DNA of 63,393 bases, counting the filler, from Licmophora abbreviata (lineage: Eukaryota): the NCBI GenBank assembly GCA_900291995.1. It is 14 parts of 14 records of this genome, joined end to end, with 100 filler letters (N's around TTAATTAATTAA, not from the genome) between each part and the next. Parts side by side here need not be neighbours in the genome. Positions count along the whole stretch, not along the records: positions 31,685 to 38,356 come from OLMU01004610.1; 13 more parts are not named here. One strand, written 5' to 3'. Under the pieces are notes generated by a model, which was given only the letters and a program-made list of their open reading frames with translations, was not told where the DNA came from and did not search any database. Positions 29,797-39,002 of this stretch are shown here, one piece after another; position 1 is the stretch's first letter; every line of letters begins with the position of its first letter. The position numbers were made by a program, and so were the translations under genes.

Positions 29797-31393
29797 CTAC
29801 TCTACACAACTGACACTCGCCATCGGAAGCAGAGACGAGAGCGGTCGCGGCTTACGCAGTCGTTGTTGCTTGTAGCGGGAGTAAGACAGAAACCCCCCAA
29901 ACGAGAGCATGATTCCAAACATTCCGACCCACGTAATGGGTATCCCGAATGCAATCGAGGTTACAACGACGGCAAAGATACGTCGTATGCAATTGAGCGC
30001 CGCGTGGTGGACTACTGAGATTCGAGTGAGAATATATGTCGAGGCCAAACTAAAAAAAATATAGACAACAACGAAACGGTGATCAGGCACGACTCTTTGC
30101 AATTACACGAACGGCAATTCCAGAGATTCGCACCTCGTTCACACTAGCACATGCACTCACTTGTAGCTTGCAAAGGCGACCCCATTCACGACAGACAACT
30201 GGATGTAACGGAATATAACTCCACTCCGAAATATACCCTCCGTTCGAGACAGAGTCCATACGCTCGACACAATTCCTGGAAAATCCCAAAGTAGAACAGG
30301 CAGGCATAAAACAAGTACACCCACCTGCTGCATTCGAAACTGGAGATTCATGTCATCGACAGTACCTGACTGTGGCGACGCCTGAAACAGTTTCTGGTAA
30401 AGTCCCCGAAACGAGAAACACAAATTGGACGCCATGACCATGCAGCAACTCTTGAACGATTCCAAAACCGCGCTGCTGCACCAGACGGCAACACAACCAC
30501 CCAGAAGTAAGTCAAAAGAATACAAAAGGGGAGGAGCTGCGCAGGTCGTCCACACAACGGCAACACCACCAACACTCGTCGTACCTTGCTCCACTTTCAG
30601 CCTCACTTGTTGACAATGTCGATAAGAGGCATCCCGTCACGATGACTCCCAGGGACACCATTTCTTCAGGTCCAAGCCATTCAATGCCCCACATCACCGC
30701 AATTGCAGCAGAAGTAATGGGCTCTGCGGCCTTGATTGTCTCCACGAACGCAGGAGACGAACGTCGAAACGACACGTTGGTGAGTAGGAATCCAAAGCAA
30801 AACGCCAGTCCTGCCATGAACAGTTTCGCCTGGGGTGTCTGAAATCGTGATGAGGAAGTCGTGGAATGTCGATGGCTCAGCCGGGATCTGGTCGAGGCAT
30901 TGGCAGACGGCCAGTCTTGCAGTCCTGCAGACCCGAAGGCTCTAAAATGCAACAGCAGGCGCAACATGCAAGTCCCCAAGCCAAATTGCTGCAGCGTCAG
31001 AAAGAGTGGCGGCACATTTCCAATCATCCGTGTCCATGAAGACTGCGATGATTCCTCCGTCAAGAGTAATTTGGACGTGGATATCGAGACGACCCCGAGC
31101 GTGTACCACAACGCAACAGCCAAGACGAGCGAGTACGCCTGAGACGCATTCTGGATCCATCGTACGTAGAATCGACGCGCAAAACTGGCATTTCTCGACT
31201 TTTTTGTGTTTGGTACGCTGAGTGTAGGCGTGGATCTCACTCGGATGGGTCGCTTCTTGACTGCCCCACTGTTGTCAGACTGCGATGAGAAGGATGGACG
31301 GGAGAGAGCAACGGGGAGGGATTTTGGGCTGGAGAGATCGCGTTCTGCCGCCCAGCCATTTGAGTTTTCCCTGGAATACTCTCCTCGCCTCAT
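29797..31393 (-). CDS. Triose-phosphate/nucleotide-sugar transporter family (TPT/EamA) protein (introns 30476-30584, 30050-30160)
   Basis: PLFLTLQQF, TNVSF...FVETIKAAEPITS, MASNLCFSFRGLYQK, spliced SYN-LASTYILTRISVVHHAALNCIRR. First acceptor is a tandem CAGCAG. Confidence 0.88.
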
Positions 31394-31892
31394 GGTAGTC
31401 AGAGATGCAACAATGTCGTCTCTTGAGGTACGAATCTGGACTGCGTGTGCATTGCCATGCTGTCATGCTGTGGTCTGTCGATGAGTACCTGGAGTAGTGT
31501 CTTTCGACGTCACGGCGACGACGACGAGAAAGCAAAGTCATAAACCGTCGCCGGCCAGACTTAAGAGGAATCAGGAGTCTGATGNNNNNNNNNNNNNNNN
31601 NNNNNNNNNNNNNNNNNNNNNNNNNNNNTTAATTAATTAANNNNNNNNNNNNNNNNNNNNNNNNNNNNNNNNNNNNNNNNNNNNTTGAAGTTCAACACTC
31701 GCACTGACGTATGGTGAACAACGTGTATTCTACGAGGCCCTTTGGTATGAGACGTCATGTGGGACATGACGAATGCGTTTTCGCGCCACATCCTCCCAAA
31801 AATGCCTTCCAGCCATCGGCAAATTTTGCAGTCTCCATTCTCTCCTCGCATTCTTCCACTTGGCTCACAACAGAATAATAAGAAGTTCCACC

Positions 31893-32776: not shown

Positions 32777-35700
32777 TCATATGGGGCCGCCTTGTTCATT
32801 CAGAGCGCCCCCCAAAACATCCAGGTAGAGTTTCAAGTCGTCCGAGCCGATGCCCAGGGCGTAGCGGATGGCGTCGTACACCAGAAACTGTAGACTCACA
32901 ATGAGGGAGTAAAAGAAGATTCGAAGTGTCAGGCCCTTGAACAAGGCGCCAACCCCACCACGTTTCACCAGCTGATTCGCTGTATCGACGGGACCCACGT
33001 CGCTTCGGGCCTTTTTCATCTCACTAATCGTGGCGTCGGCTGGATTGCTCACACAGGCCGCCGTGATGCCACCCAGCGTGCCACCCAAGAGACTCACAAA
33101 AAGCGATAGTTGCAAGTCCTCTCGAGCCGCTGGGAAGCTGGTGTACATGAAGGCAGTTGACAAGTCAAACACGGTGAACTTGGCCATATTGAAAGGTATC
33201 TCCTTGGCCAGAAATACAGGAACGGCACTAAACAAGGAGAGGAAACTCTCCTCCTGTGGTCGAATCAGACGGGGCGACGTGATGAGACATGTGTTGATCC
33301 GCATGTGACAACCATACGATTGAGTGATGAGAACAACGTACCGCGACCATCCGGTTAAAGACTCCCAGAATGCTGGAAGCATAGTCGGGCTGCGCCACTG
33401 ACCGAATTCTGACAGCTTCAAAAGGGCACAAAATGAACGACCCGAGAGTGGCCGAGATTGCCGACGACGCCAAAATGATTGGAACTTCGAACTGCGATGC
33501 ACTGCTACCTGCGTACTCTGTGAAGAGGCGGCGAAGGAGCTCAGTCGTCGAGTAGGAAAGACCACCCCAGATGAAAAATCCAAAGAAGGTAGGAGCCCAT
33601 CCAGTAAAGAAAGTGGGCAAACCCTCCTCTTTGACGACGGTTCGAAACGATTGCATCACGCCAGTGTACTTGACAGGATTTGTTTGGATTTTCGTTTTGA
33701 CAACGTCAATCGGAGTCAAGAGCAGATGGACACCCGACGCACAAATGGCCCCCGATGCACAGAAGCGAGCAAAGGTACTCACGCTCAACTGAGCTTCTCG
33801 CTCAATCGGCGATCGACCGCGAGGCCCAAACTCGGGATCAAGTTGCTTGTTCGTACTATACACCTGAGTCCAAGCTGCATTCTTCTCGTCGGCCAGACTA
33901 TCGCTTACGGCCAGGACGAAACATTTCTTGCCAGTATCGTACTGGAGTCCAATACCTGCAGGAAGCAACGAAAGCAGCTGTTTCGATGACGTCGCACCTT
34001 CAGACCAGACCGGTAGCGAAGGAGGTCCGCTGTCAATACCACTCGACGTGGCGCTGATCACGTTCTCCGATCGTTTCTTCTTGATCTCCTCTTCCAATTC
34101 CTCTGGCGTTCGGTAAGACTTATAGCTATCGATCTCGGCGAGTGCATATGCTTTGGCAACAACGGGGCGGTCGTAACAGGCGCGCCCAATACAACCCCCA
34201 CCACCACCGTAGCTAGCCTCCTTCTCTGCCATGGCCATAACAGATGCAGGATCATTCGGATTTGGCATTTTCGCCTGCAGCTCCCTTGAGGGGATCGTTG
34301 TCTGTGGTAGAGGCTCATTAGGTGTAATCACTCGTGCCATCAAAGGGTCGTTCATATTGATACGTGCTGTCAACGGAGGTGGCTCCACGTAGACCATCTT
34401 TGGCTTTTCGACTGCGTAACCAGTTCCATTATTGAGAATTTCAATACGTGTCACTTCGTATTCCAAAACAGCAGTAGCAGTCGCTGATACACCACCCTGC
34501 GATGGTTTCAAGTCTGGAGGAGAAAGAATGCATCGAATGCTCTCCTTGTTTGTATATCCCGATCCAGGATCCACGAGCTGCAATCGATCCACGCGACCTT
34601 TGTTAGGTCCGCTCTTGAACAGAAAGGCTTTTGCTGTCGCCGCATATGCCGTGCTATTTTTCCGGGAAGCCTGTGGCGGCATGATGGTGACCGTTGGAGG
34701 CTTCTGATAACCATTGCCTCGATTGACTAGGTCGATGCGCAGAAGCTTGCCATTGGGCTTCAGTATCGCTCGACCCGTTGCTTGTTCGTACCCCTCCCCA
34801 GCTGCTGGCGGCGAAAAGGTCACGGCAGGCGGTCCATATCCCGGAGCGTACCCAGAGCCGCGATCCAAGACGTCTACATACGAGATGGATCCGTTATCAA
34901 TGGCCGCGAGCAACTGCGTAATCTCTTCCACCGGTTGATTGGTTTGCATCAAACCAAACAAAAGTGCAATTTGCCTTCGAGCTTCCTTAATTTCACGCTG
35001 CTGACGGTTCATTTCATTGGCACTCAGGGGTGGCAGGCCTCGCTGTTCTCGTTGCCTCTCAACGGTGTCCATGTCCGGACAGTATCTATTCAACAATGAC
35101 TCCATAAGCCTTCGCGGCCCATTCTGACCTCGATAAGACTGGAGTCCCACTTCGACCGACGCAGAAAACGCTGCAAACTGTTTGAGCCGCATATCATTCA
35201 CCTGCTCCATGGTTGCAGTTCGCGGCAGCTGCGCCGCTCTCGAATACCACCACTTTTGACAGTCGGCATCGAAACTCAGCAGGAAGCGAGTGAGGTAGGT
35301 GACGAATCGCACATTGAATCCAGCCTCTTCAGCATCAAAGAGGGTAACACCCGAGCGTTTGTTGACGGGAGAACTTTTGTACTGTAAGCCGCCCCAGCCA
35401 GAGCTATCCTCGGCCGCTGATGCAGGTGAAGCCGTGGCTCCCAGTGCGGCACCAGTCGATATGAGTGTCGATGCGAAGAATAGTCTTCGGGTTGCCACCG
35501 CCGAAGGATCTTCAAGTGAATCGACTGTTTCTTGCATAGATTCCTGTTCTACAAGTGTCTTCTCTGCCTGATCCAGTAGGGTGCTAGGTGACAGCAAAGT
35601 CGCCATGTTGTTTTCATTGTTCACAAACTGTCGCCGCTCGGGTTTGAGACTGAGACGTGACTGAGCCCCTGAATATCTCTGAACGCCTGGTCTGACGACA

Positions 35701-35789
35701 TGTGGTTGAAAAAATGCGGAGCACATGTGTATACAAGGTAGAATCAGTGCGACAACCAGAGACGGTCGTCGGCTTAGAGGTGACACCAT
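32777..35789 (-). CDS. Plastid/thylakoid-targeted mitochondrial-carrier-family protein (phosphate-carrier-like) with large N-terminal GxGY-repeat domain (intron 33254-33341)
   Basis: Signal peptide ending CSAF; TRRLFF...SPASA Tat-like signal; four GxGY repeats; carrier signatures PIDVVK, PFEAVR, PADATI; PiC-like H1 (CASGAICASGVHLLLTP) and KEIPFNMAKF. An 88-nt GT-AG intron joins RMVA to EESFLSLF. Confidence 0.85.
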
Positions 35790-36943: not shown

Positions 36944-39002
36944 ATGCCTTGCTTTAGCAGAGGACAACAAACCCGAAGATCAGCCGTCTGCTTGGCAGTC
37001 CTGGCAGCGGCCGCCACTACGACTGCATTCTCAACAACACTGAGCCATCGCCATCACGAACGAGTCACGACACAACGCTACTTTAGGCAAGACGGACTGA
37101 AATCACAAGATGTCGATGTACTATCCACCTCAGTATTACCTCGAGTCGACGAGATGCCGACCTGGTTGAGGCATTCGAAATCTCACAAGACGGAAGAAAA
37201 CTTTGAGATGTTGCGAACCGCCATGCTTGATTCCTTCTTTACCCAGAATGAAGCATCCAAGCTTGTCTTGGCTATCGAAGAGGCTGCCGGCAGCGATCGC
37301 AGCAAGATGGCCGGCGCCTCCGAATTCTGCTTGATTTTGGTTGAGACCATGGAAATGGGTCTCAATGCTTTGATAGCGGCCGCGTTTCATTTCTGCTCGT
37401 GCGTGACGGCGAGGGAACGAAGTCTGTTGCAGCCTCAGGGCAGCTCATACGACTATCCTGAACGCGATGAGCATCAAGCTCTTCAGTCATTTGGCGAGCA
37501 TACCATTATGATTGCTCGTGATGCTGCGCAGCTCAAGAAACTGGAAATGGTCGCCACGACGATTGTCCATGGCAGTACCAGTCGCGTCCGCGTGTCGCCG
37601 GATGCACGAGATTCCGAGAATCTGCAGCATCTGCTTTTGACTCGAACGAAAGACTGGAGGGCGCTGGCGATTCGATCAGCCGCTTGCTTGTTTCGTTTGC
37701 GGGGTCTCGACGACGAACTGACACCCGAGGCGGTACGGGTTGCGCGTGAAGCACTGCATATTTTTGCTCCCTTGGCATCTCGGTTGGGCATGCATCGTCT
37801 CAAGAACGAGTTAGAGGATGCGGCGTTTGCCCTCTTGTATCGACGTCAATACAATGTTGTCACGTCCTCTGTTGACATTGGCGAAAGCATGAAACACGTG
37901 TTGCACGATGTCACGGAACAAGTGAAGACTATGCTGGACGAGGATCCTGAGTTCACCATGCTTGCCAAGAATGTCTTCGTGACCGCGCGTGTCAAGGAAC
38001 CATTTTCGATGTGGCGAAAGATGCTTCGCAACAATTCCAAGAACATCTTGCAGGTTCCCGATGCGCTCGCATTGCGCATTGTGTTAGACGCCAAGCAGCA
38101 GTCGGAGGACGAAGACGTGACTGTGACGCGTGCGCGTGAACGTGCTCTTTGTTACTATGTACAGAAGCTGTGTACGGAGCGTTGGAAGCCTCTCCCGGAG
38201 AACCCACGCTTCAAGGACTACATTGCCAGGGCTAAGGCGAACGGCTACCAGAGCCTGCACTACACCGCCTCCACCCCTTGGCAAGGCGAAGACTGGAAGG
38301 TCGAATTTCAGATTCGTACCAATGAAATGAACAAGGTTGCCGAATACGGCTTGGCCNNNNNNNNNNNNNNNNNNNNNNNNNNNNNNNNNNNNNNNNNNNN
38401 TTAATTAATTAANNNNNNNNNNNNNNNNNNNNNNNNNNNNNNNNNNNNNNNNNNNNGAATACGGCTTGGCCTCGCACTGGGACTACAAGGCGCAAGGTCG
38501 CAACAAGGAGTACAAGCCAACGGGAGAGCAGTGCTCCGACACGTACCTTCGAAAGGTCCAAGAGTGGCACTGGCAACAGCATTCGGGCGCGATTGCCTCT
38601 GAGTGGGACGCGAGTCCTTCGTCGACCGAGCCAGTCTTCCAGGATCAGACCGAAAGCCAAGTCCGCGCCGACCGCATCCGTGCCCGAACGGCGCGTTTGG
38701 CTCCATACATTGAGGCTCTCAACGAGGCCCAGTCTGATTTGGCGCGGGAGCATGTCTTTGTGTTTCTCTCGCACTCCCAAGACAACCTTCACCCCGAGGG
38801 CAAGGTGTTGGCCCTTCCATCGGGTGCATGTGTCCTCGATGCGCTGCGCGAAGGAGAAAAAACGCTCGGTCTCCGGTTGAACTGGAGGGAAGAGCGTTCT
38901 CTTGTCAAGCACAATGGATCGATGGCGAACGTGACGCAAAAACTCAAGAATGGTGATATTCTGAGCGTTCCGTTGCAGGCAGAAAAAGTTTCCTATCAAT
39001 AG
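36944..39002 (+). CDS. RSH: Plastid RelA/SpoT homologue, (p)ppGpp synthetase with degenerate hydrolase and C-terminal TGS-like domain; spans linker 38357-38456
   Basis: Signal ending TTTAF; IFAPLASRLGMHRLKNELED, ARVKEPFSMWRKM, DALALRIV, RFKDYI...NGYQSLH, EFQIRT. AEYGLA-SHWDYK is rejoined across the gap. TGS-like LPSGACVLD...LKNGDIL. Confidence 0.92.

Follow-up and report, generated by a model that had tools for sequence, protein, structure and literature searches.

The stretch of DNA considered here (the window) comprises 63,393 nucleotides, filler included, from the alga Licmophora abbreviata (assembly GCA_900291995.1). The part that derives from OLMU01004610.1 holds a gene for a mitochondrial-carrier (SLC25) protein in which the carrier domain is preceded by two targeting signals and a large ectodomain. 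Within this ectodomain lie four tandem copies of a small β-repeat. On the evidence of profile and sequence searches, this repeat is homologous to one found in cyanophage virion proteins and in a bacterial lipoprotein. All coordinates refer to the whole window; the gene and its repeats are read from the minus strand. The gene is laid out as follows.

32777..35789, minus strand: whole gene, with a product of 974 amino acids (from the open reading frame list, translation and a splice check)
35789..33342, minus strand: exon 1, 816 amino acids, with the ATG at 35789
33341..33254, minus strand: intron of 88 nt (GT..AG), the sole intron, within the span of the carrier domain
33253..32777, minus strand: exon 2, stop codon included

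The splice junction (...NRMVA/EESFLSLF...) agrees with the ortholog consensus RMVxEEGxxSLF, and the length of the product fits those of the orthologs (approximately 950–1000 amino acids). From the N- to the C-terminus, the protein consists of an endoplasmic reticulum (ER) signal, a twin-arginine signal, the ectodomain of approximately 530 residues, and the mitochondrial-carrier domain. The ectodomain contains, in sequence, a helical domain, the four repeats, and a post-repeat segment with a Cys loop.

Four Tandem Copies of a β-Repeat

The units and the conservation of their central motif are as follows.

34767..34910, minus strand: repeat 1, residues 294-341, ...ISYVDVLDRGSGYAPGYGPPAVTFSPP...ATGRA; G-x-G-[YF] kept in 59 of 84 relatives
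34626..34769, minus strand: repeat 2, residues 341-388, ...LLRIDLVNRGNGYQKPPTVTIMPP...ATAKA; G-x-G-[YF] kept in 80 of 84 relatives
34473..34616, minus strand: repeat 3, residues 392-439, ...VDRLQLVDPGSGYTNKESIRCILSPP...ATATA; G-x-G-[YF] kept in 80 of 84 relatives
34335..34478, minus strand: repeat 4, residues 438-485, ...VTRIEILNNGTGYAVEKPKMVYVEPPP; G-x-G-[YF] kept in 82 of 84 relatives

Each unit follows the same plan over approximately 47 residues: a hairpin (A-T-A-x-A...V..I.I), then the G-x-G-Y loop, then a P-x-V-x-I strand. The G-x-G-Y motifs lie at residues 311, 358, 409 and 455, giving anchor spacings of 47, 51 and 46. A fifth motif, GEGY at residue 331, falls within unit 1 and is not a separate repeat; in total, five GxGY motifs are observed, against 0.13 expected from composition. 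Repeat 1 is the most degenerate unit among the 84 aligned relatives. In units 2-4, strong conservation extends beyond the structural Gly, Tyr and Pro residues of the consensus, for example in NKGR, GYAVEKP and PPPLTAR.

All six pairs of units exceed shuffled sequences in self-similarity (z 3.7 to 12.5); in a control of 500 shuffles, between 0 and 4 attain the observed pair score. The four units are true tandem copies, above chance. Four GxGY repeats inside the soluble domain of the carrier had already been described in an earlier, sequence-only reading of the window, and this description is borne out by both the shuffle control and the conservation of the motifs. The span given at that time, 34150-34900, covers the units and a downstream CIGRAC motif, but misses the first few residues of repeat 1.

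Structure Models

Two models were obtained with AlphaFold2 (AF2). The first, of the repeat region (72 relatives aligned), has a mean predicted local distance difference test score (pLDDT) of 91.3 and a predicted template modelling score (pTM) of 0.82. It is mostly β, in line with the β-rich character that had been anticipated for this region. The modelled unit consists of a long hairpin, the GxGY loop and a short strand; the hairpin of repeat 2 is found at E44-62 of P0002. The second model, of the whole ectodomain (residues 128-660; 84 relatives), has a pLDDT of 85.1 and a pTM of 0.78, with the four units above 95. The post-repeat segment has a pLDDT of approximately 62 in the repeat-region model, versus approximately 92 in that of the whole ectodomain; such a rise in context is as expected if the segment packs on the rest of the ectodomain. 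The models favour, though weakly, a single head into which the units are packed over units that hang free.

Comparison of the repeat model with predicted viral structures in BFVD gives 25 fold matches at E <= 1e-3, nearly all to structural proteins of cyanophages or uncultured Caudovirales; one example extends over 96 columns with a root-mean-square deviation (rmsd) of 1.4 Å. The nearest ESM Atlas clusters to the repeat are 80-83% viral. Amongst solved structures, a sequence search of the PDB gives only chance-level matches to the repeat region, two in number (E 0.29 and 0.38), and no match to the ectodomain, and Foldseek finds 0 matches in the PDB at E <= 1e-3 for both models.

In VIA, the top match for both models is domain I of T4-type tail sheaths, aligned with units 2-3. 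The Z scores, 4.6 (77 residues, rmsd 3.5 Å) and 4.2 (79 residues, rmsd 3.5 Å), compare with a noise level of approximately 7-8. T4 gp18 domain I (PDB 3foa, 3fo8; sheath of phage KP1, 9ev2) is the best solved match to units 2-3, at 12-15% identity; the Z scores are far below the level of a shared fold, and the match is a lead only. Together with the position of the repeats in certain sheath proteins (see the next section), the top rank in VIA suggests that the repeat and sheath surface domains may be distant kin. A trimer prediction of the repeat region, in which the alignment was not used, scored 0.00 against a mark of 0.32, and speaks neither for nor against a fibre.

The Repeat in Phages, Bacteria and Viruses

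No family in Pfam-A or NCBIfam matches the repeat region at E <= 10, and ordinary eukaryotic domains are not among its best matches. By comparison with PHROG profiles, 20 families match, with the following named hits: 19630 (E 3.6e-15) and 701 (E 7.9e-15), both annotated as 'virion structural protein'; 2885, 'baseplate wedge subunit' (E 1e-11); 5342, 'tail fiber protein' (E 7.9e-11); and 460, 'head closure Hc2' (E 5.8e-10). The matches are limited to ectodomain residues 165-348, that is, to the repeats. The same PHROGs are matched by the proteins of Chrysochromulina, Ectocarpus and Nannochloropsis and by a diatom paralogue B protein.

A phmmer search of 1.84 billion representative sequences yields 1104 proteins at E <= 1e-3; the number falls to 248 at 1e-10 and to 36 at 1e-30. 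The best 150 matches fall into two classes. The first is the algal family, comprising proteins of a few hundred to approximately 1000 residues with a single matched stretch; the second consists of giants, the longest with 7903 residues, in which 5-23 stretches match and the summed E values go down to 2e-73. P0124, for instance, has 3120 residues and 43 GxG[YF] motifs, and P0164 matches a baseplate-wedge PHROG outside its repeats. Pfam scans of 22 giant repeat proteins give no family on the repeat, only scattered other domains, and NCBIfam scans of four of the giants give no model for it. The consensus V..I.I.N.GSGY...PTVTI...ATATA, which the sequence-only reading had cited, is plain in the giant proteins, with P0124, P0163, P0165 and P0170 as examples of proteins that show it, and also in a bacterial consensus.

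Among 50,697 phage records searched by tblastn, 281 match with 28-32% identity, all 281 coming from phages of Synechococcus or Prochlorococcus. The matching sequence of S-MbCM6 belongs to a 21-kb open reading frame named 'gp8 baseplate wedge protein', which comes next after gp25 and gp6. In the tail-sheath proteins P0397 and P0405, the GxGY repeats stand between Gp18_domIII_N and Phage_sheath_1, the site of the outer domains in T4 gp18. The resemblance to virion proteins of T4-like cyanophages that had been proposed from the sequence is confirmed by the PHROG matches (E 4e-15 to 6e-10), these phage records and the BFVD matches. The giant baseplate and virion proteins of cyanophages (Kyanoviridae; PHROGs 701, 19630, 2885, 708, 5342 and 460) share with the alga the same unit, with a period of approximately 46-51 amino acids. 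They differ in carrying approximately 10-40 or more units over thousands of residues, and in being located on virions, whereas the alga has exactly four position-specific units in an organellar membrane protein.

A likeness to some bacterial surface proteins had also been proposed, and a chromosomal lipoprotein from Cyclobacteriaceae does carry the repeat. This protein, P0163 (1046 residues, 15 GxG[YF] motifs), is encoded on the chromosome of a metagenome-assembled genome and combines CarboxypepD_reg with the GxGY repeats. It shares 35-39% identity with the algal cassette over approximately 140 residues; in contrast to the algal protein, it has approximately 15 units and neither a carrier nor a helical domain. 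Of the 201 Bacteroidota genomes sampled, one matches the algal cassette, and this is the genome already found to hold P0163. None of 72,556 plasmids matches the repeat. A pattern search with the repeat region, which detects close relatives only, gave no confirmed relative in genome contigs (145 pattern hits) or viral contigs (22). In a set of 14 control genomes, PHROG profiles 460, 19630 and 708 each match Synechococcus elongatus and none of the others, which suggests, at the level of profiles, that the S. elongatus chromosome encodes the repeat.

Two proteins of the giant virus Sylvanvirus sp., A0A3G5AH46 and A0A3G5AH06, match the repeat model; one is within the 25 BFVD matches and one is below the cut-off. 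One of these matches spans 96 columns with an rmsd of 1.4 Å and 29% identity. Since Sylvanvirus proteins match the model, the repeat is not confined to bacteria and, among viruses, to phages.

Distribution and Age of the Fusion

Of 40 single-stretch matches scanned, 25 contain the carrier family PF00153; the other 15 have no Pfam family, and 14 of those are shorter than 620 amino acids. Diatom members are named from Cylindrotheca, Fistulifera, Nitzschia, Pseudo-nitzschia, Mayamaea, Amphora, Attheya, Leptocylindrus and Seminavis, with further ones under the partial names 'Fragi...' and 'Thalas...'. Diatoms have at least three paralogue clades of the fusion (P0209, P0376, P0245 and P0268). Members outside the diatoms, which keep three or four GxG[YF] units, come from Chrysoparadoxa, Phaeothamnion, Laminaria, Ectocarpus, Tribonema, Nannochloropsis and Chrysochromulina, the last being the only haptophyte named among the matches. 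No green-algal, red-algal or plant name appears among the 77 matches listed or the other named matches. A second member from Tribonema minus, P0362, bears the UniRef name 'EF-hand domain-containing protein'.

The presence of the fusion in diatoms, brown algae, xanthophytes, eustigmatophytes and a haptophyte indicates that the capture took place long ago and was not specific to diatoms. The relationships of the units were examined in a FastTree tree of 101 units over 46 columns, built from 14 algal proteins and from every third unit of 10 prokaryotic or phage proteins. Three of its 98 branches are supported. Across lineages, algal units from the same position (R1, R2 and last unit) tend to fall together. 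As judged from these comparisons, the four-unit cassette is ancestral to the sampled algae. Horizontal acquisition of the cassette, which the sequence-only reading had put forward, is a reasonable inference from the distribution, although the unit tree singles out no donor and the event does not belong to diatoms.

The Remainder of the Ectodomain

Two further features of the ectodomain flank the repeats.

34893..35339, minus strand: all-helical N-domain, approximately residues 151-299, with the motifs FVTYLxRFLLxFDxDCQxWW and EARRQIALLFGL
34176..34193, minus strand: C-I-G-R-A-C after a Gly run, residues 533-538, in the post-repeat ectodomain

The AF2 helices of the N-domain extend over 24-171 (P0336 numbering) with pLDDT above 90. 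Searches with the ectodomain and the protein give no Pfam, PHROG or PDB-sequence match to this domain, and residues 1-670 have no Pfam family at E <= 1 (and no EF-hand), save for a sub-threshold match to TPX2.

The Cys pair of the second feature, C-x-G-R-x-C, is kept in 50 of 84 aligned relatives, while approximately 31 are without the segment. CIGRAC is a possible small disulphide loop or metal site. The disulphide that had been suggested here from the sequence is possible, but the Cys pair is confined to one paralogue clade: the Cys loop and the Gly run are restricted to the clade of the window gene (the same 50 of 84 aligned sequences).

Targeting Signals

By inspection, two signals can be recognised ahead of the ectodomain.

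35715..35789, minus strand: ER-type signal peptide, residues 1-25, ...HMCSA/FF
35409..35495, minus strand: twin-arginine translocation (Tat)-type thylakoid-transfer signal, residues 99-127, ATRRLFFASTLISTGAALGATASPASA/AE

A Phe residue directly follows the putative cleavage site of the signal peptide. Such a residue (ASAFAP-type motif) is typical of the bipartite plastid presequences of algae with complex plastids. The second signal, TRRLFFASTLISTGAALGATASPASA/AE, has an RR-type motif, a moderately hydrophobic stretch and small end residues, as expected for the Tat pathway. In the aligned column, RR is found in 66 of 72 relatives; of the others, five lack the N-terminus and one has RK. The motif in the relatives is [ST]-R-R-x-[FL]-[FLM], followed by an uncharged stretch rich in Ala, Gly and Ser and by small end residues, and is kept across paralogues. 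One relative, P0172, is matched by the Pfam profile TAT_signal (PF10518) above the cut-off (E 2.9e-5).

The Tat-type signal precedes the six carrier helices. To our knowledge, Tat-exported domains that are followed by a polytopic membrane part are very rare. In Tat-dependent membrane proteins such as the Rieske Fe-S protein and C-tail-anchored bacterial substrates, a folded domain is likewise exported and the protein stays anchored. The known cases have one transmembrane helix, or three in the actinobacterial Rieske protein; six carrier helices, as here, would be unusual.

The Carrier Domain

The C-terminal approximately 300 residues form the carrier domain.

32777..33776, minus strand: mitochondrial-carrier (SLC25) domain; exon 1 encodes two of its three Mito_carr repeats and exon 2 the third

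Pfam PF00153 matches exon 1 in two stretches (E 1.4e-20) and exon 2 in one (E 3e-13), giving the three tandem repeats of the family. Two of the P-x-[DE]-x-x-[KR] signatures, PIDVVK and PFEAVR, are canonical; the third, PADATI, is without Lys or Arg. Phosphate carriers have a third motif of this sort. In the source databases, relatives are named 'solute carrier family 25 phosphate transporter 3' and 'mitochondrial phosphate carrier protein 2'.

The domain order recalls the calcium-regulated carriers (ATP-Mg/Pi and aspartate/glutamate), in which a soluble N-domain on the non-matrix side is followed by the six-helix SLC25 domain. The likeness is one of architecture only: those carriers use EF-hands in the intermembrane space, whereas in the window protein none was found, the domain is novel, the targeting signals are of plastid and Tat type, and the presumed membrane is that of the thylakoid. 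The plant proteins TAAC (a member of the MCF) and PHT4;1 share with the present protein its presumed thylakoid location and possibly a role in solute or phosphate transport, but they are not known to have a large lumenal ectodomain or a Tat signal.

A 2018 review (PMC5948301) reports that TAAC and PHT4 were not found in diatoms, brown algae, eustigmatophytes and haptophytes, and that PHT4 homologues are known only from green and red algae. On such a distribution, a thylakoid phosphate carrier of another family is plausible in these algae. In Phaeodactylum, the plastid carrier MCFc of approximately 40 kDa, as described in PMC12645085, is a different protein. Plastid-targeted MCF 'phosphate transporters' of Phaeodactylum, e.g., Phatr3_J11866, appear in section 9 of a preprint, with no mention there of thylakoid, lumen or Tat (10.1101/2024.12.16.628690).

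Proposed Mode of Action and Alternatives

We propose that a thylakoid carrier bears a lumenal head exported by Tat, that the repeats serve this head as a rigid scaffold with no catalytic part, and that their cassette was captured once; the chance that this proposal is right is about even. The ectodomain would fold in the stroma, and the Tat pathway would then move it, folded, into the thylakoid lumen, where it would remain tethered to the carrier. Export of the N-terminal half by Tat would place the N-terminal face of the carrier in the lumen, corresponding to the intermembrane-space side in mitochondria. The four-repeat module would keep the helical N-domain and the post-repeat segment in a constant arrangement over, or at, the opening of the carrier towards the lumen, and the substrate of the carrier would be phosphate. 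A phage or a bacterium would have supplied the cassette, either already as a block of four units or to become one, before ochrophytes and haptophytes shared the gene, with transfer presumably in the direction of the alga.

Several points weigh against this proposal. The compactness of the head is read from the pTM and pLDDT of the models only. The assignment as a phosphate carrier derives from automatic naming in the sources only; for the carrier part, the PDB matches include no phosphate carrier, and the ESM Atlas gave generic carrier clusters only. The literature searched holds no localisation or transport data on the fusion family. The Pfam TAT_signal profile gives no match to the window protein at E <= 1. 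Most database matches are nameless, so that other eukaryotes may hold the repeat. In the unit tree, the algal units are not one clade apart from the prokaryotic units, and no donor is named. Finally, a cyanobacterial rather than a phage source is possible because three repeat PHROGs match Synechococcus elongatus.

The last two points bear on a different account of the origin, in which the source of the repeat is not a phage but the lineage of cyanobacteria or plastids, or a different bacterium, or in which the repeat is an older eukaryotic domain that is also present in phages and bacteria. This account is somewhat unlikely. It is favoured by the S. elongatus matches, which involve no other genome of the control set, by the chromosomal bacterial lipoprotein with its 15 GxG[YF] motifs, and by a unit tree that does not resolve the donor. 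However, the evidence from S. elongatus consists of profile matches. In addition, green algae, red algae and plants are absent from the 77 listed and other named matches, and the repeat is rare in the sampled bacteria (1 of 201) and plasmids (0 of 72,556) while being abundant in marine cyanophages.

The sequence-only reading had envisaged a horizontally acquired, β-rich rod that might act as a lumenal spacer or scaffold for thylakoid or pyrenoid membranes, an interpretation that is partly supported: homology to phage and bacterial repeats is borne out, and transfer is plausible but would be ancient. In its stricter form, an extended β strut would touch the opposite membrane or a partner and set the lumen width of thylakoids or pyrenoid tubules, with the carrier serving mainly as an anchor. 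The phage unit is indeed used in long arrays within fibre, baseplate and sheath-surface proteins, a use typical of structural spacers; the repeat region is β-rich and confidently modelled; and a head of approximately 530 residues would be very large for the thylakoid lumen. Against this, there are only four units, fixed in number and with position-specific sequences across distant algae, and the carrier signatures are intact, which argues that the carrier is no mere anchor. The ectodomain is also modelled as one body with the helical domain (pTM 0.78), with flanks that gain confidence in context, which suits a free rod no better than an integrated head. We regard a lumen-spanning rod as improbable.

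A binding module, in which the repeats, as a decoration domain co-opted from virion surfaces, would bind a lumenal protein, glycan or lipid head group and thereby place or regulate the carrier within a thylakoid subdomain or gate it according to conditions in the lumen, is improbable to a similar degree; such a module would have its analogue in the N-terminal regulatory domains of calcium-regulated mitochondrial carriers. The repeat does occur on exposed parts of virions (the sheath insert in P0397 and P0405, and the tail-fibre and baseplate families), the non-structural residues of units 2-4 are strongly conserved, and a soluble N-domain on the same side of the carrier recalls the ATP-Mg/Pi and aspartate/glutamate carriers. 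On the other hand, the repeat has no known partner or ligand in any organism, and scans of the Pfam and NCBIfam type reveal no lectin-like or EF-hand family.

Less probable again is a location outside the lumen, with the RR-hydrophobic stretch being a stop-transfer signal or part of the transit peptide, the ectodomain stromal or between the envelopes, and the carrier in the inner envelope: the missing TAT_signal match in the window protein would be accommodated, and other plastid MCF proteins of Phaeodactylum are assigned to the envelope or stroma side in PMC12645085 (which concerns a different protein), but the Tat-type motif is kept in 66 of 72 relatives across paralogues, and a distinct signal peptide and a spacer come before it, an arrangement known from lumenal proteins of complex plastids.

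A bolder extension of the proposed lumenal scaffold can also be formulated. In this scenario, a phosphate carrier of mitochondrial type would have been joined, in an ancestor of the chlorophyll-c algae, to a Tat signal, a new helical domain and a virion-surface repeat taken from a marine cyanophage. The fused protein would serve these algae as a thylakoid Pi/H+ transporter in place of PHT4;1, with a phage-derived β module that reaches across the lumen and couples lumen geometry or state to the return of phosphate to the ATP synthase. We consider this whole chain of events very unlikely. If it were true, lumen width, pH and, via the Cys loop, redox state would be mechanically coupled to phosphate return, and the protein would be a rare case of a six-helix membrane protein with an N-terminal half that is exported in folded form by Tat.

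Neither the fusion nor the repeat is described in the literature searched, and the same applies to any Tat-targeted carrier. From the sequence comparisons, the novelty would lie in an SLC25 carrier with a new ectodomain and import route, and in a new, eukaryotic setting for an uncurated phage repeat. A large part of aquatic photosynthesis is carried out by diatoms, brown algae, eustigmatophytes and haptophytes, whose thylakoid solute transporters are largely unknown; the fusion family offers a concrete, testable candidate for such a carrier, which would have a large lumenal head and reach its membrane by an unusual import route. Structural repeats of phage or bacterial type that have persisted for hundreds of millions of years in an organellar protein of eukaryotes are uncommon, and the family would add an example. 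The repeat itself is widespread (281 cyanophage genomes and more than 1000 representative proteins), yet neither Pfam nor NCBIfam has a model for it, and no structure of it has been solved.

Neighbouring Features of the Window

The divergently oriented neighbour of the gene (36944-38356, plus strand) encodes a RelA/SpoT homologue, with matches to HD_4 (E 5e-13) and RelA_SpoT (E 3.6e-22); it meets a block of N at 38357. Downstream in the window and on the same strand as the gene, 30515-31282 (minus strand) encodes a fragment of a TPT/EamA-type transporter (PF03151, E 1e-9; PF00892, E 1.6e-7), which is separated from the gene's part by N runs at 31585-31628 and 31641-31684. Paired 44-base N runs of this kind, 12 bases apart, occur at 13 places (19519-54877), none of them inside the studied gene. 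The window contains 1145 N in total, including a single N at position 5.

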